Shown piece by piece: positions 2,249 to 48,558 of a stretch of DNA of 64,000 nt. The stretch spans positions 11,997-75,996 of the forward strand of contig CAJPPK010000007.1 of assembly GCA_905372565.1 (NCBI GenBank), read 5' to 3'. The DNA is from an uncultured Porphyromonas sp. (lineage in GTDB: Bacteria > Bacteroidota > Bacteroidia > Bacteroidales > Porphyromonadaceae). Numbering within the stretch: position 1 is the stretch's first letter; each line of letters begins with the position of its first letter. The position numbers and the translations under genes were made by a program. The notes beneath the pieces were generated by a model that did not search any database, had not been told where the DNA came from, and saw only the letters and a program-made list of their open reading frames with translations.

Positions 2249-3979
2249 ATGTCGCTACGCACACACCTTGAGAGCTTCTTCGCTCGTCTGAGCCAAACGA
2301 CCTATTATTACCTCCTCCTCTTCGCCCTCCTGCTCCCTAATCTCGTCCTCTCGGTCGTGATGCAGCAGCCGATGATCGGGCGAGTGCTGAACATCCTCGT
2401 GATGCTCCCTATCTATATGCTCGTGCTACTGATAGCGAAGCGTCCTGGGCGTGTCTACTGGGGGCTACTGGTACTGATCCTCCTCCATGCCTTTCAGTTA
2501 GTCCTCTTGACGATCTTCAGTGGCTCGGTGGTGGCGGTGGATATGCTACTTAACCTCTTTACCTCGGAGCCAGACGAGGCAGGTGAACTGCTCTCCAACA
2601 TCCTGCTACCCATCCTCTCTATCGGAGGCTTCTATCTCGTGTCTCTGGTCGTCGCTACAGCATCTGCAGTGACACAGGGCAGTCTACTACGCTCGTGGCG
2701 CATACGCATGGGCAAGATAGCCTGCGGTATCCTCCTGCTCGCCTTACCGATCTATATCGGAGCTAAGCAGCGCTTCCCCTACCTGCACCTACGTGCTGAG
2801 GTCTACCCGATGAGTGTCTTCTATAACATGTATCTGGCGACGAAGAAGCTCCGTGAGGTCCTGCGTTATGATCAGACCAGCGCAGAGTTCTGCTTCGGTG
2901 CTGCAAGCGAGCGGGATGAAGACCAGCCCGAGGTGTATGTGCTGGTGCTTGGAGAGACTTCACGGGCTCATAGCTGGAGTCTCTTCGGCTACCCACGTCC
3001 TACGACTCCACATCTAGAGCGCCTACCGAAGGAGGAGCTAGTCGCCTTCCGAGATGTGATGACGCAGTCGAATACGACCTACAAGAGTATCCCGATAATC
3101 CTCTCTCCGGCGGACGCAGAGCATGCCGAGGAGCTTCCTCGGGTGCAGGGCTTGCTGGCAGCATTCAGGGAAGCAGGCTTCTACACCGTCTTCGTCTCTA
3201 ATCAGCCAGCCAATCGTAGCTACATCGACTACTTTGCCCAGCAGGGGGATGAGCACCATGCTATCCGTAAAGAGCTACGTCACCCCAAGCGTCGTATCTA
3301 CGATGCCGATATGCTCCCCTACCTCAAGAGGGCTCTGGAGGCTAAGCATAAGAAGCTCCTCGTCGTCCTGCATACCTACGGCAGTCACTTTAGCTATCGA
3401 GACCGCTGCCCTCAGGCAGAGCAGACCTTCCCCGTGCCCAAGAGCTACTCGGGGTCGGCTAAGGATAGTCTAGCACTGCGCAATGCCTATGACAATGCCA
3501 TCGTCGCTACCGACCGCTTCTTGGCTTCGGTGATTGAGCTCCTTCGTGCCCAGGAGTGCCCTGCCTCGATGCTCTATATCTCGGATCATGGGGAGGACGT
3601 CTATGATGATGCTCGTGAGCGCTTCCTTCACTCTTCTCCCGATATTTCCTACTATCAGCTTCATGTACCGATGCTTTTGTGGATGAGCCCAGCCTATCGG
3701 GAGGCATATCCCCAGCTCGTCGCTACGGCGCAGGCCAATCAGCGCAGGCCGATCAGTACCAATGCTGTCTTCCCGACGATGCTAGAGCTGGCGGGTATCC
3801 AGACTCGTTACCGTCGAGATAGTCTCTCGGTCGTCAGTTCGTCTCTTCGCACGGGTACGCGCTATTACCTCAACGATCGCTATGCCTGCGTTCCGCTCGA
3901 AGCACTAGACCTAGCCGAGGAGGATGTGCATCTCTTCCAGCAGAAGGAACTTCAGCTACCTCTGCCCTCCTGTCCTTAG
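2249..3979 (+). CDS. Phosphoethanolamine transferase / sulfatase-family membrane protein (EptA-like)
   Basis: 576 aa. Multi-TM N-terminal half followed by a sulfatase-type domain (VLVLGETSRAHSW, LHTYGSHFSY, YISDHGE). Confidence 0.75.
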   Translation: MSLRTHLESFFARLSQTTYYYLLLFALLLPNLVLSVVMQQPMIGRVLNILVMLPIYMLVLLIAKRPGRVYWGLLVLILLHAFQLVLLTIFSGSVVAVDMLLNLFTSEPDEAGELLSNILLPILSIGGFYLVSLVVATASAVTQGSLLRSWRIRMGKIACGILLLALPIYIGAKQRFPYLHLRAEVYPMSVFYNMYLATKKLREVLRYDQTSAEFCFGAASERDEDQPEVYVLVLGETSRAHSWSLFGYPRPTTPHLERLPKEELVAFRDVMTQSNTTYKSIPIILSPADAEHAEELPRVQGLLAAFREAGFYTVFVSNQPANRSYIDYFAQQGDEHHAIRKELRHPKRRIYDADMLPYLKRALEAKHKKLLVVLHTYGSHFSYRDRCPQAEQTFPVPKSYSGSAKDSLALRNAYDNAIVATDRFLASVIELLRAQECPASMLYISDHGEDVYDDARERFLHSSPDISYYQLHVPMLLWMSPAYREAYPQLVATAQANQRRPISTNAVFPTMLELAGIQTRYRRDSLSVVSSSLRTGTRYYLNDRYACVPLEALDLAEEDVHLFQQKELQLPLPSCP

Positions 3980-7166: not shown

Positions 7167-8618
7167 ATGCTTAGCGACGAACAGATCTACGAAAAGGTAG
7201 ATACCCCTCTCTTCCATTTGATAGGCCAGTGTGCTGATCGCCTCGGCGTCGAGGCTTATGTCGTAGGAGGATATGTCCGAGATCTCTTCCTCTATCGACC
7301 AAGCAAGGACATTGATATCGTCTCCGTCGGGCAAGGTATTGACCTAGCCAAGGCGGTAGCTAAGGAGTTAGGGCGAGGAGCCCAGCTCGCTGTCTTCGCA
7401 CGCTTCGGTACTGCGCAGGTCAAGCAGGGAGACCTTGAGGTGGAGTTCGTAGGGGCAAGACGGGAGAGCTACACGCCTGACAGCCGAAAACCCTTTGTGG
7501 AGGACGGCACGCTGGAGGAGGATCAGGAGCGCCGAGACTTTACGATCAACGCTCTAGCTATCTGCTTAAATGAAGATCGCTTTGGTGAGCTCGTCGATCC
7601 CTTCGATGGTTTGACGGACATGGAGGAGCTGACTCTGAGGACACCGCTAGACCCTGACGTCACCTTCAGCGATGATCCGCTACGGATGATGCGTGCCATA
7701 CGCTTTGCTTCCCAGCTAGGTTTCTTCATCGAGCCCGAGACCTTTGCTGCCATTGGGCGCAATGCTTCCCGTATCGAGATCATATCTGCCGAGCGCATCA
7801 ATACGGAGTTAAATAAGATCCTGCTCTCTCCTCGTCCCTCGCTAGGTCTAGAGCTCTTCGAGCAAACGGGCTTGATGGGCAGGGTGTTCCCTGAGCTTCT
7901 GGAGCTCAAGGGTGCCGAAACTCGAGATGGAGTCGGCCATAAGGATAACCTAACGCATACCTATAAGGTCGTCGATAACCTAGCCAAAGCCCTACGGACA
8001 GCATCGGTTGACGAAGAGAAGAAGCTCTGGCTCCTATGGGCAGCTCTGCTTCACGACATCGGGAAGCCTAAGACCAAGCGCTTCGATAAGCGCCTTGGCT
8101 GGACATTCCATAATCACAACTTCGTCGGGATGAAGATGGTCTCTAAGATTTTCCGCCGTCTTCGCCTCCCGTTGGACCACAAGATGCACTACGTAGAGAA
8201 GCTGGTGGAGCTACATATGCGTCCCGCTACGCTGGTAGACGAGGGCGTGACGGACTCCGCAGTCCGACGTCTGCTCTTCGAAGCGGGGGACGACATCGAT
8301 GATCTGATGCTCCTAGTCGAGGCAGACATCACGAGTAAGAACCCTCAGAAGGTACGTAAGTATCTGGATAACTATACCCTCGTTCGGCAGAAGCTTGTCG
8401 ATCTCGAGGAGCGAGATCGCATTCGCAACTTCCAGCCCCCGATCTCTGGTCAGCTGATCATGGACACCTTTGCTCTCACCCCTTGCCGTGAGGTCGGACT
8501 AATCAAGGACGCTATCAAGGATGCGATACTCGATGGGACGATCCCCAACGAGTATGAGGCCGCCTATGGCTTGATGCTCGCTGAAGCCGAGAAGCTTGGT
8601 CTCCGTCCTCAAGCCTAA
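7167..8618 (+). CDS. cca: HD-domain tRNA nucleotidyltransferase (CCA-adding enzyme family)
   Basis: 483 aa. Pol-beta/PolyA-polymerase head (GGYVRDLFL..DIDIV) plus an HD motif (LLHDIGKP). Confidence 0.8.
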   Translation: MLSDEQIYEKVDTPLFHLIGQCADRLGVEAYVVGGYVRDLFLYRPSKDIDIVSVGQGIDLAKAVAKELGRGAQLAVFARFGTAQVKQGDLEVEFVGARRESYTPDSRKPFVEDGTLEEDQERRDFTINALAICLNEDRFGELVDPFDGLTDMEELTLRTPLDPDVTFSDDPLRMMRAIRFASQLGFFIEPETFAAIGRNASRIEIISAERINTELNKILLSPRPSLGLELFEQTGLMGRVFPELLELKGAETRDGVGHKDNLTHTYKVVDNLAKALRTASVDEEKKLWLLWAALLHDIGKPKTKRFDKRLGWTFHNHNFVGMKMVSKIFRRLRLPLDHKMHYVEKLVELHMRPATLVDEGVTDSAVRRLLFEAGDDIDDLMLLVEADITSKNPQKVRKYLDNYTLVRQKLVDLEERDRIRNFQPPISGQLIMDTFALTPCREVGLIKDAIKDAILDGTIPNEYEAAYGLMLAEAEKLGLRPQA

Positions 8619-9511: not shown

Positions 9512-12085
9512 ATGATCATAACCAAGCGTGCTAATGAGCCCGTATGGACTAGCATCTACGCCTATGCTCAGCTCCCCGAAGAGCTCCGTCGCTTAGACGA
9601 ACTATCGCACAATCTCTGGTGGGTATGGAGCCCTAAGGCGCAAGCCCTCTTCCGTCGTCTCTCCCCCGAGCTGTGGGAGGCTACCGAAGGTAATCCTGTC
9701 GCTCTGACACGCCAGCTCTCTAGCGAAGAAATCTCCGCCCTCGTAGCCGATAAGAGCTTCATGAAGGAGCTCGACGAAGTATATGCCGACTTCCGTGCCT
9801 ATATGGACGAGTCTGCGGACAGCGTCCGCCCCTCGGTCGCCTACTTCAGTATGGAGTATGGACTGTCTAACGTCCTGAAGATCTACTCTGGTGGTCTCGG
9901 GGTCTTGGCTGGGGACTATCTCAAGGAGGCCAGTGACAGCAATGTCCGTCTCTCGGCTGTCGGCTTCCTCTATCGCTATGGTTACTTCACCCAGACGCTC
10001 TCCGCCGAGGGACAGCAGCAGGCTACCTACGAAGCCCAGGACTTCTCTCAGCTCCCTCTCGAGCAGCTCTTCGAGGAAGATGGGTATACCCCTATGGTGC
10101 TGGAGGTGCCCTATGCGACCCATACGGTCTACTGTCATGTCTGGAAGGTCAACGTTGGGCGCATTAACCTTTACCTCCTCGACACCGACATCCCGCAGAA
10201 CAGCGAGTGGGACCGCTCCATTACCCACCAGCTCTATGGTGGTGACTGGGAGAACCGTATGAAGCAGGAGTACCTCCTCGGTATCGGTGGTGTACTTCTC
10301 CTTAAGCGACTCGGCATTCAGAAGGACGTCTACCACATGAACGAGGGGCATGCCGCCTTCATGAATGCACAGCGTCTGGTCGATTACGTAGAGGCTGGCT
10401 CACCCTTCGACGAAGCTCTCGAGCTCGTACGTGCCTCGTCGATCTACACGGTGCACACCCCTGTACCTGCAGGGCATGACTATTTCGATGAGGAGCTCCT
10501 AGGTAAGTACCTCGGGCACTTCCCCTCTCGCCTCGGGATCTCTTGGCATGACTTCGTCAGCCTAGGACGTGAGAATCCGGAGAGCCAAGAGAAGTTCTCG
10601 ATGAGCGTCTTCGCTCTGAACACTTGCCAGGAGGCTAACGGCGTGAGTCTCCTACATGGCAAGGTCTCACAGGAGATGTTTGCTCCCGTTTGGAAGGGCT
10701 TCTTCCCCGAAGAGCTCCACGTAGGCTACGTAACCAATGGGGTTCACCTACCGACATGGGCTTCCCCAGCCTGGCAGGAGTTCTACCTCAAGCACCTCGG
10801 CAAGGGCTTTATCAAGAACCAGACGTCCGAGGATACGTGGGCGAAGATCCAGTCCGTACCCAACGAAAAGATCTGGGAGACGCACCAGCAGATTAAGCTT
10901 CATCTGATCGAGCACATCCGCTCCTTCTACGGAGAGAAGTGGATCAAGAGTAGTGGTGATCCCGAAACGACCGTATCGGTACTCGATGGGATCAACCCAA
11001 ATGCTCTTTTGATCGGCTTCGGTCGTCGTTTCGCTACCTACAAGCGCGCCCATCTCCTCTTTACCGACCTCGAGCGTCTGGAGCGCATCGTCAATAATCC
11101 GAAGTACCCCGTACAGTTCCTCTTTACAGGGAAGGCGCATCCTGCCGACGGGGGCGGTCAAGGCCTCATCAAGTATATCCTCGAGATCAGCCGTCGTCCT
11201 GAGTTCCTCGGTAAGATCATCTTCCTGGAGAACTACGATATGCGTCTGGCGAGCAAGCTCATCGCTGGCGTTGACATCTGGATGAATACCCCTACCCGTC
11301 CGCTAGAGGCGTCTGGTACCTCGGGAGAGAAGGCCGAAATGAACGGCGTGCTTAACCTCTCCGTCCTCGACGGCTGGTGGTACGAAGGCTATCGTAAGGG
11401 CGCCGGCTGGGCATTGACGGACAAACGTACCTTTACCGACCAGGGACTTCAGGACAAGCTCGATGCTACGACCATCTATGATATGCTTGAGAAGGAGATC
11501 ATCCCGCTCTACTTCGACCGTGGGGATAAGCCTTTCTCGGACGCTTGGGTACAGACGATGAAGAATTCAATGAACTTCATCGCACCACACTACACCATGC
11601 GCCGCATGATGGACGACTACTTCGCACGCTTCTACAGTAAGCTCGCTGAGCGCTCGGCACACCTCCACGCTGACGGACATCGGGTGGCGCGTGAGCTAGT
11701 CGAGTGGAAGCGTAGCACAGCGGAGCGCTGGGATGACCTGCGCATCCTATCTGTCGAGGATACGGCACAGACCAACGCCTTCGCTACCGACCGTCATACC
11801 GGTACGGAAGAGACGATCCGCCTGACGCTCGATCGTGGCGCTCTGGCCTGCGACCTCGCCGTAGAACTTGTAGATACGCAGGAAGGCGAAGGGGGCAAGC
11901 TACGTCTCGTTGGCAAGGCCCCGCTGAAGCTCGTCAGCAAGGAGGGCTCTCAGGAGACCTACGAGCTACGCTTCACGCAGTCTCGCCCAGGTCACTACAA
12001 GCGTGCCCTACGCATCCTCCCCACACACCCTGAGCTTCCTCACCGTATGGACTTCGCCCTCGTCCGCTGGGTAGCCCTACAGTAA
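9512..12085 (+). CDS. glgP: Alpha-glucan (glycogen/maltodextrin) phosphorylase, GT35 family
   Basis: About 857 aa with the PLP-lysine region EASGTSGEKAEMNGVLNLSVLDGWW. The start was moved to the ATG at 9512, downstream of the promoter box. Confidence 0.9.
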   Translation: MIITKRANEPVWTSIYAYAQLPEELRRLDELSHNLWWVWSPKAQALFRRLSPELWEATEGNPVALTRQLSSEEISALVADKSFMKELDEVYADFRAYMDESADSVRPSVAYFSMEYGLSNVLKIYSGGLGVLAGDYLKEASDSNVRLSAVGFLYRYGYFTQTLSAEGQQQATYEAQDFSQLPLEQLFEEDGYTPMVLEVPYATHTVYCHVWKVNVGRINLYLLDTDIPQNSEWDRSITHQLYGGDWENRMKQEYLLGIGGVLLLKRLGIQKDVYHMNEGHAAFMNAQRLVDYVEAGSPFDEALELVRASSIYTVHTPVPAGHDYFDEELLGKYLGHFPSRLGISWHDFVSLGRENPESQEKFSMSVFALNTCQEANGVSLLHGKVSQEMFAPVWKGFFPEELHVGYVTNGVHLPTWASPAWQEFYLKHLGKGFIKNQTSEDTWAKIQSVPNEKIWETHQQIKLHLIEHIRSFYGEKWIKSSGDPETTVSVLDGINPNALLIGFGRRFATYKRAHLLFTDLERLERIVNNPKYPVQFLFTGKAHPADGGGQGLIKYILEISRRPEFLGKIIFLENYDMRLASKLIAGVDIWMNTPTRPLEASGTSGEKAEMNGVLNLSVLDGWWYEGYRKGAGWALTDKRTFTDQGLQDKLDATTIYDMLEKEIIPLYFDRGDKPFSDAWVQTMKNSMNFIAPHYTMRRMMDDYFARFYSKLAERSAHLHADGHRVARELVEWKRSTAERWDDLRILSVEDTAQTNAFATDRHTGTEETIRLTLDRGALACDLAVELVDTQEGEGGKLRLVGKAPLKLVSKEGSQETYELRFTQSRPGHYKRALRILPTHPELPHRMDFALVRWVALQ

Positions 12086-12202
12086 GTGCTGCTCCCCTAC
12101 TCCCTTTGCGGATCTTTCGGTCTGCTTCTTCTAGCGCAGCTAGCTCTCACGTGGGGGCTGGCTACGCTAGAATTCAACATGGTAAGTATTAAGAATAAGC
12201 TG

Positions 12203-12780
12203 ATGAAAAGATTCTTTCTCGCCACAGGGCTTATCGCACTGCTGGCAACAAGCGGACTGCAGGCACAAGACTCTCGCGGACGCCTCGGGATCATCCTAGG
12301 GGGTGACAACGGGATAACCTATGACTATGCCCTCGGAAGCCACTTCGAAGTGGGTACAAAGGCTACTCTACGTCTCGGTGTGGGCTATAATGAAAGCACG
12401 AAGAGCATGCAGTTTGATGGTCTTATCCCAACACTAGAGGTCGCACCACGCTACTATTTCTCCCGTCGTAATGTAGGAGAAGTCTTCCATCGAGGTCTCT
12501 ATCTTTCCCTTCGCCTGAGTGCTGAAGTAGATCAGTGGACGCTCTTCCCAAGTCGCGACATACGCGAGAGCCCCCGTAATATCTCTATGCCCTAACTATG
12601 GCGGCGCCGACGATCGGGTGGAGTCTCCCCGTGGGTGAGACGAGTGCCTTCCGCTTCGGTGCAGGGATAGGCTTCTACCGGCAGAAGTACCGCGAAGCAG
12701 GTGTATCTGAATGGCGTAGCAATACCAGTCAAGCAGAGATACCCATTTACCTGGAGCTGACCTACACGCACGCACTCTAG
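12203..12780 (+). pseudogene. Frameshifted paralog of the small OM beta-barrel-like protein encoded at 21498-22073
   Basis: ORFs 12086-12595 and 12598-12780 align end to end with the intact 21498-22073 protein once a 1-nt deletion near 12578-12582 is restored (..FPSRDIRESPR(N/K)|YLYALTMAAPTIGWSLPVGE vs ..FPSRAIRESDRKYQYTLAFVPTFGWSIPVGE). The signal peptide MKRFFLATGLIALLATSGLQAQ starts at 12203. Confidence 0.7.
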
Positions 12781-16850: not shown

Positions 16851-16923
16851 ACCGAACTTCCCCCTTGCACTTTTACTACTGAGACCTACCAAGCGAAGTA
16901 TATAACGATAAACGAGCTATAGT

Positions 16924-17190
16924 ATGAGAATTAAAGACCAGATATCTCTCCGTAAGATCGCTGACGAGTATATTATGATTGTCGGATCAGGAGACAGCCT
17001 GGACTATACCCAGGCGGTAAGCCTCAATGACAGTGCTGCCTATCTCATCGAGCAAGTACAGGGGCGTGACTTCACGGCTCAGGACTGGGTCGAGCTCCTG
17101 ACCGAGCGCTACGAGGTCGATCTAGAGCAGGCGGCAGCAGACGTTGAACAGCTTATCCAAATGCTTATTCAGGCAGAGATCGTCGTTTGA
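16924..17190 (+). CDS. PqqD-family (RRE-like) small protein
   Basis: 88 aa. The pattern is typical of PF05402-type peptide chaperones (..IADEYIMI.....LNDSAAYLIEQVQG.DFTAQDWVELLTERYEVD.EQAAADVEQLI). It is the first gene of a translationally coupled trio. Confidence 0.7.
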   Translation: MRIKDQISLRKIADEYIMIVGSGDSLDYTQAVSLNDSAAYLIEQVQGRDFTAQDWVELLTERYEVDLEQAAADVEQLIQMLIQAEIVV

Positions 17191-18332
17191 AAGCTCCTGT
17201 AACTACTTTGCCTCGTGCGGAGGCACTCTTTCTTACTCTCCTTCGTTCAGCGCTGCATGCTACGGAGCTAGATCCCGAGCCTTTCATTGGACTAGAAGAT
17301 GGAATCTGGCGTCGGGTACACCGACTTGCTACCCAGCATGCTGTCTCGGCCTTCGTGGGAGATCGGGTGCTTACGCTTCCCAAGGAGGCCCTCCCGAATC
17401 GCGATATGCGCTTGATGATCTTCTCGGAGGTCGAGCTCACCAAGCGTGCTAATACCTACTTGGCTAAAGCGCTCAGAGAGCTGACGGAGCTATACCAGCG
17501 AAATGGGCTGGACTTCCTCCTGCTCAAGGGACTTGCTGTCAGTAAATACTACCCCACACCCCTACTACGTGCGGGAGGGGATCTAGATATTCTCTTCTTC
17601 ACAGACGAAGCGTACGAGGAGGCCAATAATCTCCTACTCTATGCAGGCTATCACCTGCATGATGACTCCGAGGTGCGCTATGGACACACGGCATTCACCT
17701 ATGGACGTACGATCGTCGAGAACCATGCTCGTGCGGTCTTCTTTGACCACAAACGTCACAATGTAGCCTTTGAGAGGGTCTTACAGGACGCACTACAGAA
17801 GGGTGAGCTAGAGCACCTGACGATCGATGGCTTGGAGATGAAGACCCTGCCCCATGAGCTGAATGTCGTCTATATCTTTATCCACCTCTTCTTCCATTGG
17901 CTTCATTGGGGGGTCGGCTTCCGGCAGTACTGCGATTGGCTTCTGATGATGACTCGTCTGAAGGGAAGTCTTGATCTGGCAAAAGTCAAGCAACTGATCC
18001 AAGAGCTAGAGATCCTCTATCCTATGCAGCTTTTCGCCGAGGTCGCTATACGTTACCTTGATGTAGCTCCAGAGATCTTCCCCTTCCCGCTACTGGAGAA
18101 GGAGGATCCGAATACTGATCGCCTGCTCTGGGATGTTCTGCAGAGTGGTAACTTTGGATTCGCTCAGCGTCCAGCACCCAGTAAGAGTCGCTGGGTGACG
18201 AACTGGCGGAAGTTCTGGTTTAAGTACAAGCGTACTCGTCGTCTCTATCGTATCTCTCCGGTACATACCTCCCGTATCCTCTGGGGTTCGGTCTTGGGGC
18301 ATCTCCAGCTCCTCTTACGTCCACGACGATGA
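17187..18332 (+). CDS. Uncharacterised nucleotidyltransferase family protein (NTP_transf_5-like)
   Basis: 381 aa. The start overlaps the PqqD stop (TTGA) and its stop overlaps the ABC start (ATGA). The central GGDLDILF motif is consistent with a pol-beta-fold nucleotidyltransferase. The family assignment is from recollection of PF14907-type proteins that neighbour PqqD genes. Confidence 0.6.
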   Translation: MKAPVTTLPRAEALFLTLLRSALHATELDPEPFIGLEDGIWRRVHRLATQHAVSAFVGDRVLTLPKEALPNRDMRLMIFSEVELTKRANTYLAKALRELTELYQRNGLDFLLLKGLAVSKYYPTPLLRAGGDLDILFFTDEAYEEANNLLLYAGYHLHDDSEVRYGHTAFTYGRTIVENHARAVFFDHKRHNVAFERVLQDALQKGELEHLTIDGLEMKTLPHELNVVYIFIHLFFHWLHWGVGFRQYCDWLLMMTRLKGSLDLAKVKQLIQELEILYPMQLFAEVAIRYLDVAPEIFPFPLLEKEDPNTDRLLWDVLQSGNFGFAQRPAPSKSRWVTNWRKFWFKYKRTRRLYRISPVHTSRILWGSVLGHLQLLLRPRR

Positions 18333-19942
18333 TTGATTTGGTGCGCTTTATCCTACGAGGTCACAAGTGGAGCATCCTACTGATCCTCTTGCTGGGGTTA
18401 GGGACAGTAGTGACTAACCTGGCTTTCATTTGGCTCTCTAAGAGTGTCATTGATATAGCGTCGCACCAGCGAGGAGGCTCTATACACACCTTTTCCTTTG
18501 CCCTGGTTCTTACACTGGCCCTTCAGGTGCTCTGTCGTGTCGCCTCCGTGCGTCTGTCGAGCTATACAGGGGCAAAGATGAGTAATGATGTCCAGTCTAA
18601 GGTCTTCTCTCATCTACTCTATACTCGCTGGTCAAGTCTCGGGCACATACATAGTGGAGATCTCGTCGTCCGTATGTTGAAGGACACTGAGACCCTCGTG
18701 ACTTTCTTCGTCTCCTCGCTCCCTACAGCGATTATTTCCTCTGCACAGCTCATCGGGGCACTCCTACTCCTCTACTATTTTAGTCCTACACTGGCTCTAA
18801 TTTTAGGTGTCGGGATGCCACTCTTGGCTCTCTTCAGCAAGCTCTACTATAAGCGCATGCGTCGCTATACCGATGAGATGAAGCAGGCTGAGAGTGTGAT
18901 CACGGCACATGTGCAGGAGACCCTGATGAATCAGACAGTCATACGCACTTTCGAGCGTCAAGGCACCGCCATCGATCACTTACACATGCGTCAAGGGCAG
19001 TATCTGCGTGCTGTGGGGCGACAGACCGTCGTGTCCGTCTTTGCGAATCTACTGATGCAGGGGGCCTTCGCTGGGGGATATATCATCGCTTTCCTATGGA
19101 GCGCCCGAGAGCTCTTCGCTGGGGCGATTACCTTCGGACTCATGACGTCCTTCCTCCAGCTCGTAGCACGCATTCAGTCACCACTCAATACCCTCATCCT
19201 TCAGTTACCAGGGCTCATTAGCTCGAAGTCTTCCTTGGATCGTCTGGTGAATCTGCTAGAGTTCAAGACCGAGCAGATGGGTAGAGCTGTGCGACTGACA
19301 GGGAATAACTTCCGTCTCGAAGTCGAAGGGCTCTCCTTCCGCTATGAGGAGGATGAAGCCTGGGTTTATCGGAACTTCAGTCTCTCTGCTGGACGTGGAG
19401 AGATGATCGCCCTCATGGGGCGTACAGGAGCGGGGAAGACGACACTCCTTCGTCTCCTTCTCGGGCTGATCACACCGACTGAGGGACGTATCACGCTACA
19501 GACGCCTCAAGCGATCTACTCCGTCAATGAAGCTACTCGAGGGAACTTCGTGTACATACCGCAGGGAGGGAGTCTCTTCAGTGGGACGATCCGTGAGAAC
19601 CTCCTTCTCGGGGACGAAGATGCCTCGGAGGAGCGACTTCGTCGGGTCTTGTACTTAGCGGTCGCTGACTTTGTCTTCGACCTCCCGAAGGGACTAGATA
19701 CCCTGATCGGTGAGCGAGGTGTAGGCCTCTCCGAAGGACAGGCACAGCGCATTGCTATCGCCCGTGCTCTCCTACGCCCTGGTAAGATCTTACTCCTAGA
19801 TGAAGCAACTTCTGCTCTCGATCAGGAGACCGAGACACGCTTCTTAGAGCACCTTCGCCGTGAGGCAGGTGATCGCCTTATTCTCTTCATCACGCACCAC
19901 CCCGAGGTGGCTGCACGATGTGATCGCACGCTCCATATCTAG
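18329..19942 (+). CDS. ABC exporter, fused permease/ATPase half-transporter
   Basis: 537 aa. Six-TM N-terminal domain, Walker A GRTGAGKTTLL, signature LSEGQAQRIAIARAL, and Walker B ILLLDEATSALD. There is no C39 peptidase domain. Confidence 0.9.
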   Translation: MIDLVRFILRGHKWSILLILLLGLGTVVTNLAFIWLSKSVIDIASHQRGGSIHTFSFALVLTLALQVLCRVASVRLSSYTGAKMSNDVQSKVFSHLLYTRWSSLGHIHSGDLVVRMLKDTETLVTFFVSSLPTAIISSAQLIGALLLLYYFSPTLALILGVGMPLLALFSKLYYKRMRRYTDEMKQAESVITAHVQETLMNQTVIRTFERQGTAIDHLHMRQGQYLRAVGRQTVVSVFANLLMQGAFAGGYIIAFLWSARELFAGAITFGLMTSFLQLVARIQSPLNTLILQLPGLISSKSSLDRLVNLLEFKTEQMGRAVRLTGNNFRLEVEGLSFRYEEDEAWVYRNFSLSAGRGEMIALMGRTGAGKTTLLRLLLGLITPTEGRITLQTPQAIYSVNEATRGNFVYIPQGGSLFSGTIRENLLLGDEDASEERLRRVLYLAVADFVFDLPKGLDTLIGERGVGLSEGQAQRIAIARALLRPGKILLLDEATSALDQETETRFLEHLRREAGDRLILFITHHPEVAARCDRTLHI

Positions 19943-35682: not shown

Positions 35683-36558
35683 ATGAAACATGCCTACATG
35701 ATCCTAGCTCATGGCGAGCCTGAGCTATTGCAGCTTCTTCTAGAACGGCTAGATGATCCACGGAATGATATCTACATCCATCTAGATCAGAAGTGGACCA
35801 ATCCTCCTAAGCTGGCGACAAAGCAGGCTAAACTCTTTCTGCTAACTAAGCGAGTGGATGTTCGCTGGGCAGATGTGAGTATGCTTGAGGCGGAGTATGC
35901 GCTCTTTCATGCGGTAAAAGACTCTGGGCAGAGTTACGCCTATCACCATCTCCTCTCAGGAGTGGATCTTCCGATAAAGACGCAAGACTATATCCATCAA
36001 TTCTTCCTCGAGAATAATGGGAAGGAGTTTGTGGGAATTCATCAGCGCCCTATGAGCTTCCGAGCTGATCGGGCTCTGCATTATTGGCATCCTTTCACGC
36101 GCTCTTTTCGAGGAAAGGGAGTTGCGTTTCAGCTTAAACGTATCCTACGTTACCTCATTGTACAGGTGCAGGTGCTACTTGGCCTCCGACGTAATGTCTC
36201 CATCTCTTTCCAGAAGGGAGGACAATGGGTCAGTATCACTTCAGATCTTGTGGATTATCTCCTAAAGCATGAAGAGCCGGTCTTGTCTTGCTATGCTGGG
36301 ACATTTGGAGCCGATGAGTATTTTATTCCTACTCTTCTCTGGAATTCTCCGTTGCGAGAGCGTCTCTATTGTGCAACGGATGAGACGCTCGGAGCTATGC
36401 GTTATATAGGGTGGCGATCCGATGGTCAACTCCTCGCTTTTAGCTCAGAGGATTTACCTGAGCTCCAGCAGACCTCTTGTCTTTTTGCTCGTAAGTTTGA
36501 TCTTCGTGATCGATCTTTCTTAGAAAAGGTCCTTCTCCTTTCCAAGCCGACTCCTTAG
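35683..36558 (+). CDS. Glycosyltransferase family 14 (core-2/I-branching type)
   Basis: 291 aa. The N-terminus MKHAYMILAHGEPELLQLLLERLDDPRNDIYIHLD is typical of the bacterial GT14 family. Confidence 0.7.
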   Translation: MKHAYMILAHGEPELLQLLLERLDDPRNDIYIHLDQKWTNPPKLATKQAKLFLLTKRVDVRWADVSMLEAEYALFHAVKDSGQSYAYHHLLSGVDLPIKTQDYIHQFFLENNGKEFVGIHQRPMSFRADRALHYWHPFTRSFRGKGVAFQLKRILRYLIVQVQVLLGLRRNVSISFQKGGQWVSITSDLVDYLLKHEEPVLSCYAGTFGADEYFIPTLLWNSPLRERLYCATDETLGAMRYIGWRSDGQLLAFSSEDLPELQQTSCLFARKFDLRDRSFLEKVLLLSKPTP

Positions 36559-36571
36559 ATTTATCACTTCT

Positions 36572-37549
36572 ATGCTACCTCCCTTAGTCTCTATCATTAT
36601 TCCCGTCTATCGAGCAGAGAAGACTCTCCCTGCGTGCCTAGACCAGCTTAAGGCGCAGAGCTATCGTAGTCTCCAGTTGATATTCATTGATGATTGTAGC
36701 CCTGATGGGAGCTATGCTTACCTCACATCACAGCGGGGGGAGCTTGAAGCATTGGGGATGGAGGTGACCTTACTACGGCATGAGAAGAATCAGGGAGTTG
36801 CAGTAGCTCGTAATACAGGATTAGACGCAGCTCACGGAGAGTATATTTACTCTGTGGATGCAGATGACCGTCTTGCTGATAATGCGATTGAGTTGCTTGT
36901 GAAAGCAGCTGAGCAGAGCCAGATGGATGTGGTTGGTTGTGAGTACTACCTTGAGGAAGGCGCTCATGCACGTCAGATTCATCAGCCTGATGTTAAGACG
37001 GGGCAAGAGGCATTTCAACAGATCTGTTATGGGCGGATGAAGTGGAACCTCTGGCTCTTCTTATTCCGACGAGAGCTCATTGAGAAACCTGAGCCCTTAC
37101 GCTTCCTGCCGGGGAAGAATATGGGAGAAGATCTTATGCTTTTGGGGCGTCTACTTGATCGAGCCAATGGTGTTGAGATCATTCATCAGCCTCTATATAC
37201 ATATGTTCGCTCGGACGAACAGATCACAGGGTCTTACCGGCCAGAGCATTGGTCTCAGGTTTTTGCTAATCTAGAGATGCTTGATTCCTCACTCTCTTCG
37301 GAGGCTCGAGCTTATATCCCTTATCTTAAGCTGACTCTTAAACGCCCTCTTCTCGTCACGGGAAAGAAAGCTGACTATCATCGTTGGACAGATACTTATC
37401 GGGAGACAGATCCTTTTATCATGCAGAATCCTAGTCTTCCCTTTCGCTCTAAGATTCTTGAGCAAATGGCGGCTAAAGGACAATATTGGTATGTTGCCTT
37501 GTACTACCATGTCGTGATGCGTGGACTGTATTCACTTTTCTATCGGTAG
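36572..37549 (+). CDS. Glycosyltransferase family 2
   Basis: Motifs VSIIIPVYRAEKTL, DDCSPDGS and SVDADD (DXD). Confidence 0.85.
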   Translation: MLPPLVSIIIPVYRAEKTLPACLDQLKAQSYRSLQLIFIDDCSPDGSYAYLTSQRGELEALGMEVTLLRHEKNQGVAVARNTGLDAAHGEYIYSVDADDRLADNAIELLVKAAEQSQMDVVGCEYYLEEGAHARQIHQPDVKTGQEAFQQICYGRMKWNLWLFLFRRELIEKPEPLRFLPGKNMGEDLMLLGRLLDRANGVEIIHQPLYTYVRSDEQITGSYRPEHWSQVFANLEMLDSSLSSEARAYIPYLKLTLKRPLLVTGKKADYHRWTDTYRETDPFIMQNPSLPFRSKILEQMAAKGQYWYVALYYHVVMRGLYSLFYR

Positions 37550-37559
37550 AACATAGCCT

Positions 37560-38834
37560 ATGTGGAAGATTGTCCAGGTTCTGCTTATTGCAGTCTTAGT
37601 TAACTGCTCTTACTACTCTTTTAGCTTTGCGGCTTTCCCAAATGCGCCTAACACGAAGATGCTTTTGGCGATGCTGGGGCTTTTATGGTTCCTTTTTGAC
37701 TCCTGGCGCCGAGGGAAGGGGGTTCCTTTCTCTCCAACGATGCTTACAGGAACGATCTTTGCAGGGCTGTATTCATTAGTTAACCTCATCGCTATCGAAA
37801 TTAATGATACGAATGACTATAGTTATGCCAACTACCTAACGACTTTCTTCGTCTGGGTCTTCAGTGTCTATCCAGCCTTAAGTTTGATGCGTATCGTTCA
37901 TGGATCCATCACGATCCCACGCATAACTTATTACCTAACAGCTGTGACAGTCTTCCAGTGTATTACTGCTCTTCTTATTGATAATTACCCTGGGTTTGAT
38001 GACTTCTGTTCGAGCATTGTTTTTTGGAGCTTAGAGTTTTTTGCTAGTATTGATCGTCTACGCTGTTTCAGTACAGCACTTGATCCAGCAGGAGTACGCT
38101 TTGCTCTTGTTCTTATACTTATTGCCGCAACGATCTGTGTCGATGAGCAGGTGCAGCAAAGTTACCTGAGACTTTATCTGCTTTTCATTGCTTATCTTCT
38201 CATTTCAGGGATTGGAAATATGGTTGCGAGAACTACATCCTCAGGGATGGGACTTGGGCTTCTTATACTTTTGATTCACAGTAATGCTGTTGGACTGAAG
38301 GTGCGTTCCTCTATGGTGCGTACTATGTCCATTTTTGCAGGTTTGCTTCTCATCGCGTTTGGTGTAGGGATTTACTTGTATAACACGAGTGACTATTATC
38401 GTGGACTATTAGAGTTTGCATTTGAGGGATTTTTCAGCCTCTTCAATCAAGGGGAGTTTCAGACAAGCTCGACAGACGTTTTGGCTACGATGTGGATTTG
38501 GCCAACGGATATGCAAACTTGGATCATTGGCTCTGGGATTTATGGCAGTTTTGCCTTTGGATCTGATATTGGTTACTGTCGATTGATCCTTTATTCGGGG
38601 TTGGTGGGTTTTGGCTTATTTGCTCTTAGCTTTATTTACTATGCTTTTCATTTCGCTGGTAAGTATCGTCCCTATCGCTGGCTCTTCTTGGCCTACTTAG
38701 CCATGACCTTTATTATTTGGATGAAGGTGTCGACTGATATTATGATGATTTATGCGTTCTTCTTTTGGTTTACTAAGCAAGAGGAAGATGCGATTAATGG
38801 TCTCATCCCTTTGGCTCAAAATACTGACGTATGA
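37560..38834 (+). CDS. O-antigen/capsule polymerase (Wzy-like) polytopic membrane protein
   Basis: 424 aa with 10 or more predicted TM segments and a large loop (..QGEFQTSSTDVLATMWIWPTD..). This is the most AT-rich gene of the locus by eye. Confidence 0.6.
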   Translation: MWKIVQVLLIAVLVNCSYYSFSFAAFPNAPNTKMLLAMLGLLWFLFDSWRRGKGVPFSPTMLTGTIFAGLYSLVNLIAIEINDTNDYSYANYLTTFFVWVFSVYPALSLMRIVHGSITIPRITYYLTAVTVFQCITALLIDNYPGFDDFCSSIVFWSLEFFASIDRLRCFSTALDPAGVRFALVLILIAATICVDEQVQQSYLRLYLLFIAYLLISGIGNMVARTTSSGMGLGLLILLIHSNAVGLKVRSSMVRTMSIFAGLLLIAFGVGIYLYNTSDYYRGLLEFAFEGFFSLFNQGEFQTSSTDVLATMWIWPTDMQTWIIGSGIYGSFAFGSDIGYCRLILYSGLVGFGLFALSFIYYAFHFAGKYRPYRWLFLAYLAMTFIIWMKVSTDIMMIYAFFFWFTKQEEDAINGLIPLAQNTDV

Positions 38835-39982
38835 AGATCATCTATTGTATCCCAGCGACCTCTAACTCGGGAGGAATGGAGCGCGTCCTAGCGAGGAAGG
38901 TGAATTACCTAGCAGAGCGTGGCTATGAGCTAGCGATTATTACTACCGATCAGCGAGGGAAGGCTCCCTTTTTCCCACTCCATGCTAGCATCACGCAGTA
39001 TGATCTGGGGATCAATTACGATGAGAACAACGGTCAAGGGCTTCGGGCGAAGCTGAGAGCATATCCACGAAAGAAGCGCCTGCATCGTGAGCGACTCTCC
39101 AAACTATTAGTAGAGCTTCAGGCTGACATTGTCATCTCTATGTTTGGGGATGATGCGGACTTTCTGCCAAGTATTCAAGATAGCAGTCGTAAGGTGCTGG
39201 AGTATCACTTCTCAAAGCTCAAGCGCCTGCAATATGGTCGTAAGGGACTTTGGCGTATGATCGATCACTACCGCACGTGGCGTGATGAGTCTACGGTGCG
39301 AGGCTATGATCGCTTCGTTGTTTTGACGGCCGAAGATGCAGGATACTGGGGAAGCCTTCCAAATATCCAAGTGATCCCCAATCCTTTGCCATTTACTTCT
39401 GAAGAAGTCTCAGATTGTACCTCCAAGCGAGTCCTCGCTGCTGGGCGGTATGACTTCCAGAAGAATTTCTCCCTCCTTCTGCGGATTTGGTCTCAGATCG
39501 CTCCCAGCTATCCGGACTGGAAGCTGGAGATTATCGGGGATGGAGCGCTCCGTCCCGCCTTGGAGGAGGAAGTTGTACAGCTAGGACTCTCATCTTCTGT
39601 CGAGCTCTCTCGTCCGACCCAAGAGATGCAGGCGGTCTATCTGCATTCTTCTGTCTATGCGATGACTTCTCGCTATGAGGGGCTACCTATGGTGCTGATC
39701 GAAGCGCAACAGATGGGACTGCCTATTGTCTCTTTTGCTTGTCCTTGTGGTCCACGTGATGTGATCCATGAGGGCGAAGATGGATTCCTGATACCCTTAG
39801 GCGAGGAAGACGCCTTCGTCCGTGCACTACGTCTGCTCATGGACTCTGAGGCAGAGCGCCAGCGTATGGGACGGGCAGCTCGTCTCTCTTCTGCTCGCTA
39901 TGATGTAGACACGATCATGGCGCATTGGATCCAGCTCTTCGATACCCTCTCCGTTACTCCTTCTTCAACTCCTGTCTCATGA
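38831..39982 (+). CDS. Glycosyltransferase family 4
   Basis: GT-B C-terminal motif EGLPMVLIEAQQMGLPIVSF. ATGA overlap with the upstream gene. Confidence 0.85.
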   Translation: MKIIYCIPATSNSGGMERVLARKVNYLAERGYELAIITTDQRGKAPFFPLHASITQYDLGINYDENNGQGLRAKLRAYPRKKRLHRERLSKLLVELQADIVISMFGDDADFLPSIQDSSRKVLEYHFSKLKRLQYGRKGLWRMIDHYRTWRDESTVRGYDRFVVLTAEDAGYWGSLPNIQVIPNPLPFTSEEVSDCTSKRVLAAGRYDFQKNFSLLLRIWSQIAPSYPDWKLEIIGDGALRPALEEEVVQLGLSSSVELSRPTQEMQAVYLHSSVYAMTSRYEGLPMVLIEAQQMGLPIVSFACPCGPRDVIHEGEDGFLIPLGEEDAFVRALRLLMDSEAERQRMGRAARLSSARYDVDTIMAHWIQLFDTLSVTPSSTPVS

Positions 39983-41082
39983 AGCGAATAGTCATCTCTG
40001 CGGTCAATCTTCGCAAGGGAGGGACGCTGACTATCCTACGCCAATGTCTTTCGTTCCTCTCCGAGTGGGCTCCTAAAGCAGGCTACGAGGTCGTCGCTCT
40101 AGTGCATAAGCAGGAGCTCGCGGACTATCCTAATATTCGCTACATCGAGCTCCCTTGGGCTGCTACTGGCTGGCTCAAGCGTCTGTGGTGTGAGTATGTC
40201 ACCATGGGGAAGATCTCCCAAGAGCTGGGAGAGATCGATTTATGGCTGTCTCTTCATGATACAACGCCTCGAGTGAAGGCGAAGCGTCAGGCAGTTTATT
40301 GCCAGACGTCCTTCCCATTCTTGAAGTGGCGGTGGAGAGATTTTAGCTTTGATAAGAAGATCCCTCTCTTTGCGATGTTCACCCGCTTTGCTTACCAGTT
40401 CGGAATTCGGAGAAATAGTTACCTCGTTGTCCAGCAGGAATGGTTACGTGAGGGCTTTAGTCGCATGTTTGGCTTGCCTAAGGAGCGCTTTATCGTTGCG
40501 CCACCACCTCGAGAGCCTTTACCCAAGCTGGACCTTAAGAAAGAGGAGGGGGCACCCTTTAACTTCCTCTATGCAGCGACCCCTGATGGGCATAAGAACT
40601 TCGAGTTGCTCTGTGAGGCTACGCAGGAGCTGGAGCGACGTGTTGGGAAAGGGAAGTTCCGCACCATCCTCACGATCAGTGGACAGGAGAATAAGTACGC
40701 CCGTTGGCTCTATGAGCAATGGGGGACCTGCTCTAGTCTTGATTTCCGGGGATTCCTTTCCAAGGAGGAGCTACAGAAGACATACGCTTTGACGGACTGT
40801 CTGGTGTTCCCTTCACGTATCGAGACATGGGGGTTACCGATCTCGGAGTTCTTGCCTTATGAGCGCCCCATGCTCTTGGCAGACCTCCCCTATGCCCATG
40901 AGACCTCTCGGGGAGCGGTCGCTGTAGGCTTCTTTAATCCTACTCAAGTCAATGATCTAGTCGATGCTATGCAGGCTGTCCTGGAGGGGCATTTAGAAGG
41001 GCTAAAGGGGCAACAGTGTTGCCCCATCGGAGGCAATACTGTTGCCTCTTGGGAGGCACTACTGTTGCTCCTTTTGGGTTAA
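39979..41082 (+). CDS. Glycosyltransferase (GT-B, family 1/4-like)
   Basis: The ATG at 39979 overlaps the preceding stop (ATGA). Motif ETWGLPISEFLPYERPMLLAD. The last ~25 codons and the stop codon lie inside repeat L4. Confidence 0.75.
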   Translation: MKRIVISAVNLRKGGTLTILRQCLSFLSEWAPKAGYEVVALVHKQELADYPNIRYIELPWAATGWLKRLWCEYVTMGKISQELGEIDLWLSLHDTTPRVKAKRQAVYCQTSFPFLKWRWRDFSFDKKIPLFAMFTRFAYQFGIRRNSYLVVQQEWLREGFSRMFGLPKERFIVAPPPREPLPKLDLKKEEGAPFNFLYAATPDGHKNFELLCEATQELERRVGKGKFRTILTISGQENKYARWLYEQWGTCSSLDFRGFLSKEELQKTYALTDCLVFPSRIETWGLPISEFLPYERPMLLADLPYAHETSRGAVAVGFFNPTQVNDLVDAMQAVLEGHLEGLKGQQCCPIGGNTVASWEALLLLLLG

Positions 41083-41092
41083 CACTAGCAAC
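41009..41092 (+). repeat. Family-1 element, copy L4, overlapping the 3' end of a glycosyltransferase gene
   Basis: Units at 41009 (GGCAACAGTGTTGCC, self-palindromic), 41032, 41055 and 41078 (23-bp period). It lacks the CCAACTAGTA leader. The next ATG is at 41101. Confidence 0.8.
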
Positions 41093-41100
41093 ACTGAACT

Positions 41101-42225
41101 ATGAAGATATTACAACTAGGAAAGTTCTATCCGATCCGTGGTGGAGTCGAGAAGGTGATGGAGATCTTCACCGAAGGGCTAGCCGAGCGTGGCTATGCTT
41201 CGGATATGCTCTGTGCTTCTCATGATGGACGGGTCGATGACATCATCTTGGGCGACGAATCGAAGATCATGCGCACCAAGACGTGGATGAAGCTAGCCGC
41301 CACGATGATTTCACCAGCGATGATCTGGCGCCTACGTAAGATCTGCCGTGAGTATGACATTATCCACATTCACCACCCAGATCCGATGGCGACAGTGGCA
41401 CTCTTCTGCTCGGGCTATAAGGGGAAGGTTGTCCTGCATTGGCATAGCGACATCTTGAAGCAGAAGTTTCTTCTTCGCTTCTTTGCTCCCCTACAGAATT
41501 GGCTCATCCGTCGAGCTGACTTGATCCTCGGCACGACACCTGTCTATGTGAAGGAGTCTCCCTTCCTAAGTAAGGTGCAGTTGAAGACGGGCTACCTGCC
41601 TATCGGGGTCGATCCACACCCTTGGCTAGCCGATGAGATCCGTGAGATCCGCCAGCAGTATCCTGACAAGAAGATCCTCTTTAATATCGGGCGTCTAGTC
41701 TCCTACAAGGGGTACCAGTATCTCATCGAAGCCATGGTACACCTTCCTCAGGAATATGTCTTGCTTATCGGAGGGAAAGGTCCGCTCAAACAAGAGCTAC
41801 AAGAGTTCATCGATCGCTTGGGCCTCCAGGAGCGTGTTAAGCTTCTAGGCTTCATCTCGGATACGCTTAAGCCTGCCTACTTCGGAGCTTGCGATGTCTT
41901 CTGTCTCAGCTCCACGCTCAAGACCGAGGCTTATGCCATCGTGCAGGTCGAAGCGATGTCTCTTGGACGACCTATCGTCGCTACCGAGATCCCTGGGTCA
42001 GGTGTAGCATGGGTCAATGCCCACCAAGAGTCTGGCCTGAATGTCCCGATCGAAGATGCTCCAGCACTCGCTCAGGCCATTCAGAAGATTTGCCAAGATC
42101 CCGAGCTCTGGAGCTCCTATAGCAAGGGTTCACGCCAACGTTTCTTCGAAATCTTTACGAAGGATGAGATGATCAACCAGCTCATTCGTATCTATACAGA
42201 ACTCCTCCATCCTACCATCCCATAG
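41101..42225 (+). CDS. Glycosyltransferase family 4
   Basis: 374 aa with the GT-B motif KTEAYAIVQVEAMSLGRPIVAT. Confidence 0.85.
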   Translation: MKILQLGKFYPIRGGVEKVMEIFTEGLAERGYASDMLCASHDGRVDDIILGDESKIMRTKTWMKLAATMISPAMIWRLRKICREYDIIHIHHPDPMATVALFCSGYKGKVVLHWHSDILKQKFLLRFFAPLQNWLIRRADLILGTTPVYVKESPFLSKVQLKTGYLPIGVDPHPWLADEIREIRQQYPDKKILFNIGRLVSYKGYQYLIEAMVHLPQEYVLLIGGKGPLKQELQEFIDRLGLQERVKLLGFISDTLKPAYFGACDVFCLSSTLKTEAYAIVQVEAMSLGRPIVATEIPGSGVAWVNAHQESGLNVPIEDAPALAQAIQKICQDPELWSSYSKGSRQRFFEIFTKDEMINQLIRIYTELLHPTIP

Positions 42226-42235
42226 TACGGAATCT

Positions 42236-42832
42236 ATGAATACAATCGAACGATTTATCAAGCGAGCTTTTGACTTCTCGCTAGCACTTGTCTCTCTTGT
42301 CGTCTTCTCTCCGCTTATTGCCTTGATCGCTCTATTGATCAAGTGGGAGGATCCTCAAGGGGATGTCATCTATAAACAGGAGCGTATTGGCTATAAGGGA
42401 CGTCCCTTTATCCTCTACAAGTTCCGCTCCATGCGTATGGATGCGGAGGCAAATAACTCTCCTCAGCTTTTTACCGATGGCGATAGCCGTCTGACGAAGG
42501 TCGGAGCTTTCATCCGTGCTCACCACTTGGATGAATTCCCTCAGCTATGGAATGTGATCAAGGGAGAGATGTCCTTTGTTGGTCCTCGCCCCGAGCGTCA
42601 GTTCTTCATCGATCAGATCATGGAGCATAACCCCGACTATACTCGTCTTTATGCTGTGCGTCCAGGGCTCTTCTCCTATGCGACGCTCTACAATGGGTAT
42701 ACTGATACGATCGAGAAGATGCTGGAGCGCCTACGTCTAGACCTGAAGTATCTAGATAACTACTCCCTCTGGGTAGATGTGAAGATCATCTTCCTTACTG
42801 CCTTTTCTATTATATTTGGTAAGAAATTCTAA
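42236..42832 (+). CDS. Priming sugar-phosphate transferase (small bacterial sugar transferase / PGT family)
   Basis: 198 aa with one N-terminal membrane helix and the motif DEFPQLWNVIKGEMSFVGPRP. Confidence 0.9.
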   Translation: MNTIERFIKRAFDFSLALVSLVVFSPLIALIALLIKWEDPQGDVIYKQERIGYKGRPFILYKFRSMRMDAEANNSPQLFTDGDSRLTKVGAFIRAHHLDEFPQLWNVIKGEMSFVGPRPERQFFIDQIMEHNPDYTRLYAVRPGLFSYATLYNGYTDTIEKMLERLRLDLKYLDNYSLWVDVKIIFLTAFSIIFGKKF

Positions 42833-42844
42833 ACGACTCACGAT

Positions 42845-46113: not shown

Positions 46114-46128
46114 GCTTTTCTCCTTCAA

Positions 46129-47997: not shown

Positions 47998-48007
47998 TTA
48001 GAGTAAG

Positions 48008-48499: not shown

Positions 48500-48558
48500 G
48501 GGGAGGCCTATTGAGCCAAGGAGCTTTCCCTATCACCTTTTAATTCTCTTCCTTTTTG

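Follow-up and report, generated by a model that had tools for sequence, protein, structure and literature searches.

A five-gene cassette of Bacteroidales, split in two in an oral Porphyromonas genome, as a probable pathway for peptide maturation and export

In the clusters that make lasso peptides, a YxxPxL motif at positions −17 to −12 of the leader is read by the B1 protein, and B1 stimulates the kinase BsfK (PMC10368454). In the pseudomycoidin pathway, PsmK phosphorylates the lasso peptide and PsmN, an enzyme with a nucleotidyltransferase fold, is needed to place a hexose onto the phosphate; PsmN was modelled on ANT(2″) (5cfs) and is inactive when its D134/D136 pair is mutated (PMC6993621). 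Here we analyse a stretch of 64,000 nucleotides from an uncultured Porphyromonas species (contig CAJPPK010000007.1, positions 11,997 to 75,996; the window), in which two groups of genes recall this toolkit: a trio at 16924–19942, encoding a PqqD-type protein, a nucleotidyltransferase and an ATP-binding cassette (ABC) exporter, and a pair at 47119–48499, encoding a kinase-like P-loop protein and an S24/S26-type serine peptidase. An original prediction had linked these genes to the tailoring of lasso peptides by a kinase and a nucleotidyltransferase, a comparison that proved apt.

Our analysis makes it probable that the trio and the pair are two halves of one five-gene pathway for leader-dependent peptide maturation and export, related to the lasso pathways but not itself a lasso pathway. 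We scanned one genome per species with an alignment of eight nucleotidyltransferase sequences, which gave 80 loci, nearly all labelled Bacteroidales, and sorted the open reading frames (ORFs) of these loci with hidden Markov models (HMMs) built from the window proteins. All five families lie within 6 kb in 26 of the 80 loci, or in 21 of the 42 whose flanks reach at least 4 kb. In Petrimonas and Porphyromonas macacae, the ScmC-like kinase, S24, PqqD, PF14907 (nucleotidyltransferase) and ABC genes form one contiguous operon, and the window holds all five in a 3+2 split, 27 kb apart. The genes come in at least six orders, among them ABC(−)/NTP–ScmC–S24–PqqD, ScmC–PqqD–NTP–S24–ABC and PqqD(−)/NTP/S24(−)–ScmC(−)–ABC(−), where NTP is the nucleotidyltransferase gene, a minus sign marks the reverse strand and a slash a change of strand. 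Because the linkage outlasts this shuffling of order, we infer that the five genes share a function. The original prediction had set a linked five-gene set against a trio always tied to some ordinary pathway; the trio is found with the kinase-like/S24 pair in those 26 loci, is contiguous with it in relatives, and consists of families that profile searches support.

Fusions join members of the cassette directly: PqqD to PF14907 in locus L015, and S24 to PF14907 in P0325 (hhalign probability 99.7%). The L015 fusion, on a contig of a metagenome-assembled genome (MAG), stands beside a kinase-like gene in three ORF fragments (1316–2185); these fragments could stem from assembly error or decay, which makes this fusion provisional. 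When ORFs of at least 70 residues from 84 loci were clustered, no sixth recurrent family emerged except lipoproteins, and no cyclase, B2 protease or radical S-adenosylmethionine (radical-SAM) family. Judged by sequence comparison, the five genes are a conserved, widespread and so far unnamed kit of Bacteroidales. We found no description of the cassette, or of the peptide family and the peptide–lipoprotein pairing presented below, in the searchable literature.

The trio lies on the forward strand of the window, with the PqqD-type gene at 16924–17190 (88 residues), the nucleotidyltransferase gene at 17187–18332 (381 residues, TTG start) and the exporter gene at 18329–19942 (537 residues). Its junctions are two 4-base overlaps, TTGA at 17187–17190 and ATGA at 18329–18332, and the −4 overlap between the PqqD and nucleotidyltransferase genes is also found in eight sister Porphyromonas loci. 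The 73-bp gap upstream of the PqqD gene (16851–16923, forward strand) contains neither an ATG nor a small ORF and gave zero matches to the leader HMMs described below. In the flanks, profile searches found an S4-domain protein (hslR-like), an FeS_assembly_P protein (SufT-like) and a weak Metallophos match (LpxH-like); placement of the trio between the S4-domain gene and the SufT-like/LpxH-like genes is common to oral taxon 278, P. pasteri, P. catoniae and related MAGs. None of the PqqA, PqqB, PqqC or PqqE partners of a pyrroloquinoline quinone (PQQ) operon is among the neighbours, which are the S4-domain protein, PF14907, the ABC exporter and the SufT-like protein. The large window ORFs scanned by profile include no cyclase, radical-SAM or YcaO family. 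The original prediction had described the three coupled reading frames and their overlaps, a gap free of ATG-initiated small ORFs, hslR, sufT-like and lpxH flanks, and the lack of a precursor, cyclase, radical-SAM enzyme or YcaO in view; the coordinates were reproduced, the S4, FeS_assembly_P and weak Metallophos matches agree with the flanking genes named, and the absences hold for this window in both the leader HMM searches and the ORF scan. The G+C content of both gene groups is 0.53–0.54 against 0.53 for the window, which argues for a native origin of the cassette genes.

The first protein of the trio matches PF05402 (E = 7.9e-14), and in NCBIfam it comes closest to the lasso PqqD chaperone NF033530 (9.6e-8, under cut-off); the PqqD equivalog HMMs give it 17–20 bits against cut-offs of 46–101. 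It has no transmembrane segment, and its orthologues adjoin the nucleotidyltransferase in 63 loci. On the strength of these profiles it is a PqqD-type recognition element for peptides that are made on the ribosome and modified after translation (RiPPs), as well as a predicted peptide-binding chaperone.

The nucleotidyltransferase belongs to PF14907 (NTP_transf_5; E = 1.4e-38, 133 bits against a cut-off of 31), a family for which NCBIfam has no model that fits the protein. The PF05402 and PF14907 assignments of the original prediction are thereby supported. Across 30 sequences of 26–71% identity, K114-G115, D132-x-D134, H180, H233, H237 and D250 are invariant, and the first two of these sites make up the hG[GS]...DxD metal-binding motif of PF14907. 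An AlphaFold model (pLDDT 92.6) was matched by Foldseek to the nucleotidyltransferase-like structure 5uvd, to ANT(2″)-Ia (5cfs, TM 0.67) and to the ribitol-phosphate transferase FKRP. The exporter, predicted to be a fused permease and ATPase without a C39 peptidase domain, proved to be just that: ABC_membrane (3.9e-37) and ABC_tran (1.4e-28) are its only domains across 537 residues, its transmembrane segments fall within residues 13–280, and its alignments to C39-bearing models begin past their peptidase region. All NCBIfam exporter models score under cut-off. The exporter gene adjoins the others in 13 trio-type and 26 five-gene loci.

The distal pair is also on the forward strand. Its first gene (47119–47997, 292 residues) encodes the P-loop kinase-like protein, which matches the ScmC HMM (8.7e-7), HprK_rel_A (1.3e-4) and the PEPCK P-loop, all under cut-off (28.6 versus 125 bits for TIGR04249, ScmC, and 21.2 versus 200 for TIGR04352); PF27840 ‘ScmC’ is the Pfam family found on all of its homologues, and profile search gives no PF07475 match. 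A Walker A motif, G157-x-SGTGKST165, and the segment L179-LNDDEP185 are invariant. The AlphaFold model (pLDDT 94.8) retrieves PEPCK (E = 5e-8) and HprK/P (E = 2e-5) in Foldseek. This protein has the PEPCK/HprK fold, and is related to PF07475 and TIGR04352 at the level of fold and P-loop only.

The second gene (48008–48499, 163 residues) encodes a putative soluble S24/S26-type serine peptidase, a Ser44/His83 variant. The window protein matches PF00717 at E = 0.013, and 13 of 18 orthologues match it at E < 0.01, the best at 1e-8. Its invariant residues are G42, S44, M45, P47, H83, R84, G97, D98 and N100, and there is no invariant Lys; its V-H-R-I aligns with the V-K-R-L of LexA-type enzymes, which puts His83 at the position of the catalytic Lys, an arrangement that we take to resemble that of the Ser/His ‘ER-type’ signal peptidases SipW and Sec11. 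The protein has neither a transmembrane segment nor a DNA-binding domain and is probably a leader peptidase. The original prediction of an HprK-like gene and an S24 gene at this site holds for the genes themselves; the PF07475 membership that it named does not stand, and PF00717 fits loosely. Searched against PDB sequences, the kinase-like protein, the S24 protein and a profile of the nucleotidyltransferase each gave zero matches. The four proteins other than the transporter lack any hydrophobic stretch strong enough to span a membrane; all are predicted to be soluble, and steps before export would therefore be cytoplasmic.

What these enzymes might act on is suggested by the relatives. In locus L076, a 38-residue ORF precedes the nucleotidyltransferase gene at a distance of 10 bp. 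With pattern and HMM searches, 21 of the 80 loci yielded a total of 29 related small ORFs, with E values down to 1e-15, and the P. macacae locus also yielded one, MKTKKNPSVEYIAPDIDILNMELEQNILGGSSDIPETGDGGLLD. Examples lie at 7874–7990 and 2553–2681 in L076, 8592–8774 in L003, 9929–10036 and 4932–5057 in L058, and 14932–15057 in L065. The peptides beside cassettes are 33–50 residues long and have an acidic leader of consensus Y-V-A-P-E-V-E-V-L-E-V-E-V-E-K-G-F-A-G-S, which carries a Y-x-x-P-x-[V/I] motif (Tyr conserved in 97% and Pro in 100% of the alignment). Hydrophobic and Glu residues alternate along it, which suggests a β-strand. The leader ends in a junction of A-x-S type, with Ala or Leu at −3 and Ser, Gly or Ala at −1, and these small residues fit the rule for S24/S26-type peptidases. 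Beyond it, the core is hypervariable and acidic, with a median of 15 residues (25% Gly, 14% Asp, 11% Pro), no Cys, almost no Lys or Arg, and Trp or Phe as the last residue in 36%. Leaders differ from one another mainly in the third bases of codons, and both AGT and TCT/TCA are used for the junction Ser; these two features show selection on the protein sequence and hence that the ORFs are coding.

The family is large. A profile search of 5.8 billion proteins returned at least 1,234 clusters of 33–87 residues; among the clusters listed, none has a name, and wherever a source is given it is Bacteroides or Bacteroidales. Neither Pfam nor NCBIfam has a model for the family, and its leader strings are absent from searchable papers. 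The peptides are found in 17 of 36 loci that hold at least four cassette families, as against 1 of 15 nucleotidyltransferase-only and 0 of 13 trio-only loci. The original prediction held that the substrate could not be seen in the sequence, which remains true of the window and fails for relatives, where candidate YxxP precursors adjoin the cassette. The part most tightly linked to these peptides is the nucleotidyltransferase together with PqqD, and the PF14907 enzyme is itself probably the core modifying enzyme rather than an accessory.

Most peptide genes come with a partner. For 27 of 31, the product of the next gene on the same strand, 13–111 bp downstream, bears both a signal peptide and a lipobox Cys. 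Acidic residues follow this Cys, and we take them to resemble the surface-export signal of Bacteroidetes. The partner lipoproteins are 320–1,100 residues long and have in common their N-terminal 70–190 residues alone; some carry an N-terminal fimbrillin-like Mfa_like_1 domain, some a C-terminal Fib_succ_major domain, and most are without a Pfam match. Partner genes lie at 8791–9864 in L003, 10087–12687 and 1561–4875 in L058, 320–2665, 3032–5326 and 5697–7994 in L031, and 10770–12425 and 12849–14834 in L042. The peptide–lipoprotein pairs often form tandem repeats, and in B. ndongoniae (L058) the PqqD and nucleotidyltransferase genes stand alone between two such pairs. A 582-residue gene between the peptide gene and PqqD at that locus was considered as an exporter and rejected, its length and context suggesting the AAA-ATPase_like/PDDEXK_9 type found in L089. 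L089, L090 and L091 (Bacteroides rodentium and metagenomes) hold arrays of at least four pairs of a peptide and a large protein, far from any cassette and mixed with AAA-ATPase_like/PDDEXK_9 genes, a transposase, a phage-type integrase and a recurring 64-residue ORF. These arrays may be a variable or mobile surface-protein region.

By analogy with the lasso systems, the five proteins could act in the following order. PqqD would bind the YxxP leader as a β-strand and present the peptide. The P-loop kinase-like protein would phosphorylate a Ser or Thr, a likely site being the nearly invariant junction Ser or a residue of the core, and the PF14907 enzyme would then add a nucleotide-derived or sugar group, much as PsmK and PsmN supply first a phosphate and then a hexose. 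The soluble Ser/His peptidase of S24 type would cut off the leader at the A-x-S junction, and the ABC exporter would carry the product across the inner membrane, where it might act with, or on, its cognate lipoprotein. In the genome studied here, the cassette would have been split, and the 3′ end of an exopolysaccharide operon would have captured the kinase/peptidase pair; precursor genes, if they exist at all, would lie beyond the 64-kb window. More tentatively, the candidate products may well make up a new class of ribosomal peptides, very widespread among gut and oral Bacteroidales: linear, strongly acidic, about 15 residues long, recognised through YxxP, tailored, cleaved by the S24-type enzyme and exported, each presumably as a specific ligand or modifier of its own lipoprotein.

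Several observations weigh against a single five-gene peptide pathway. First, three successive leader HMMs found no YxxP-leader peptide in the window, and there is none within about 8 kb of the trio in eight sister loci or of the pair in four; nor did manual reading of the regions upstream of the window's lipoprotein genes yield a precursor. This clade may therefore use a different substrate. Second, this clade has the kinase/peptidase pair inside an exopolysaccharide operon: in the window, as in three other lineages of oral Porphyromonas, it follows a family-2 glycosyltransferase (GT2) gene at the end of a Bac_transf–Poly_export–Wzc operon. Third, peptides and cassette are linked by proximity only. 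Fourth, in Bacteroides proper only PqqD and the nucleotidyltransferase are near YxxP peptides, so the five-gene set is not universal. Finally, the cores lack the terminal Ser that lasso kinases modify; the chemistry thus follows by analogy only, and the lasso precedent is not directly transferable.

Four other explanations can be set beside the preferred one. The same pathway could serve a polymorphic bacteriocin system, in which the peptide is a toxin or signal and the lipoprotein its cognate immunity protein or receptor. Hypervariable cores paired with variable lipoproteins in tandem arrays, a dedicated exporter and a single enzyme set for many precursors would all suit such a system. The lipoproteins, however, are very large, and those with fimbrillin-like or Fib_succ_major domains are unlike known immunity proteins, while strongly anionic cores that lack Cys and are nearly free of Lys and Arg are atypical of membrane-active bacteriocins. 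We regard this version as unlikely.

A second explanation places the genes in glycan or envelope chemistry: a polysaccharide or lipid would receive a phospho-sugar or phospho-alcohol through the PF14907 enzyme, the exopolysaccharide locus around them would be served by the kinase-like protein and the peptidase, and the ABC protein would act as flippase or exporter of the product. Besides the position of the pair behind GT2 in four lineages, this draws on distant PF14907 genes that stand alone in glycan loci with epimerase, GT1 and WecA-like neighbours, on the GT2–PF14907 fusion P0388, and on the resemblance of the nucleotidyltransferase fold to FKRP. The exopolysaccharide embedding, the lone PF14907 genes and the GT2 fusion make a glycan-related role, at least in this clade, a live rival. 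Against it, the five genes occur together without glycan genes outside the oral Porphyromonas clade, a PqqD recognition element adjoins the enzyme or is fused to it, YxxP-leader peptides co-localise with the cassette, and a peptidase has no obvious part in glycan synthesis. As an account of the whole system we hold it to be distinctly unlikely.

The small ORFs might, thirdly, not be substrates of the cassette at all but small proteins in their own right, or regulatory ORFs upstream of the lipoprotein genes, leaving the true substrate unseen. That 27 of 31 precede lipoprotein genes, that many pairs are distant from any cassette and that no peptide is near the cassette genes in the window's clade would accord with this. 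Yet the amino-acid sequence is under selection in a large family, YxxP-x-[V/I] is the motif bound by lasso-type PqqD domains, the peptides are enriched beside cassettes (17 of 36 loci versus 1 of 15), and in L076 the peptide gene precedes that of the nucleotidyltransferase by 10 bp, which together leave this explanation highly improbable. That the trio is a decaying, functionless remnant of a former lasso cluster, as the want of a precursor, cyclase and B2 protease in the window might hint, is extremely improbable in view of its intact frames, overlapping junctions kept in sister species, catalytic residues invariant down to 26% identity, native G+C, and a cassette conserved across Bacteroidales in whose loci a cyclase is nowhere found.

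The surroundings of the pair deserve description in their own right. A long co-directional exopolysaccharide locus spans 35683–47103 of the window (G+C 0.49 versus 0.53 for the window) and encodes several glycosyltransferases, a Wzy-like membrane protein, Bac_transf, a Poly_export lipoprotein and an 801-residue Wzc-like protein with a terminal (GY)n tail. Its last gene is the GT2 glycosyltransferase (46129–47103, forward strand; PF00535, 1.3e-33), separated by 15 bp from the kinase-like gene. Membership of this GT2 in the system is uncertain: ORF clustering of the loci did not find this GT2 beside the cassette outside the window's clade, and we did not accept it as a sure member, its likeness to the fusion P0388 being generic (32% over the Rossmann-like part). 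A HAD phosphatase gene downstream of the pair (48556–49362) was likewise rejected, as it is unconserved in sister loci. Next come a DUF4248 protein (49444–49701, reverse strand) and a 161-residue lipoprotein (50277–50762, reverse strand), with 575 bp between them that hold no convincing ORF. Two paralogous phosphoethanolamine transferases of EptA/EptB type (Sulfatase plus EptA_B_N) are encoded at 2249–3979 and 54298–56025. Elsewhere, the more distant PF14907 genes (26–31% identity) are found without PqqD, kinase or peptidase in the glycan loci L056–L057, L064, L066 and L068, where they directly follow WecA/MraY-like transferase, epimerase and GT1 genes (in L056, 2776–7970 upstream of the gene at 7974); in P0388, GT2 and PF14907 are one protein.

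Bacteroidales dominate the human gut and matter in the mouth, yet the ribosomal peptide products known from this order are few. If the five-gene pathway is real, one unnamed kit would serve more than 1,000 distinct hypervariable peptide genes, which annotation pipelines label ‘hypothetical’ or overlook. It would bring a new type of leader peptidase to RiPPs, a function to PF14907, a large family of ‘uncharacterised’ nucleotidyltransferases, and possibly a new layer of strain-specific surface biology, with each peptide tied to a surface lipoprotein. Candidate precursor, enzymes and partner can now be named, which opens the system to testing.

Among known systems, the nearest are the lasso clusters with tailoring enzymes (pseudomycoidin psmCAK-B1B2-N-D, Bradymonas bsf and paeninodin). 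Like them, the cassette has a discrete PqqD/B1 protein, a PEPCK/HprK-fold kinase-like protein, a nucleotidyltransferase-fold enzyme and an ABC exporter without C39, and its relatives have precursors with a Y-x-x-P-x-[L/V/I] leader; the four shared proteins are related to the lasso accessory genes B1, K, N and D. The window nucleotidyltransferase, like PsmN, models on ANT(2″), a likeness of fold. Unlike lasso clusters, cassette loci have neither the Asn-synthetase-like cyclase (C) nor the transglutaminase-like Cys protease (B2); an S24-type Ser/His peptidase is found instead, at a position adjoining PqqD. The junction beside cassettes is A-x-S rather than the lasso Thr(−2), the cores are hypervariable and have no terminal Ser, and the precursors are paired with lipoprotein genes. 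The window itself contains the B1 element, and no adjoining YxxPxL precursor, cyclase C or B2.

The HPr-rel-A (TIGR04352/TIGR04353) and SynChlorMet (ScmC/ScmD/ScmE/ScmF) systems also combine an HprK/PEPCK-like P-loop protein with a PqqD homologue. The window protein, however, falls far under the cut-offs of these families, its partners are S24, PF14907 and ABC proteins, and the cassette is specific to Bacteroidales; SynChlorMet is further expected to have two radical-SAM/SPASM enzymes, whereas no radical-SAM family recurs in cassette loci. With S24/S26 peptidases such as LexA/UmuD and signal peptidase I, the window peptidase shares the G-x-S-M nucleophile followed by V-[K/H]-R-[I/L], and the predicted cleavage site of the YxxP peptides has small residues at −1 and −3, as for signal peptidases. 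It differs from those enzymes in having no DNA-binding domain, no membrane anchor and a His for the LexA-type Lys, and it would act in the cytoplasm on a leader of RiPP type.

Prochlorosin-type libraries consist of many precursors with a conserved leader and hypervariable cores, served by a single enzyme set. The YxxP family has the same architecture, with many genes per genome to one set of enzymes, but the enzymes and chemistry differ, and each YxxP precursor is paired with a lipoprotein gene of its own. We rate the kind of system as one already known, RiPP-type leader-dependent maturation, with several features that are without precedent.

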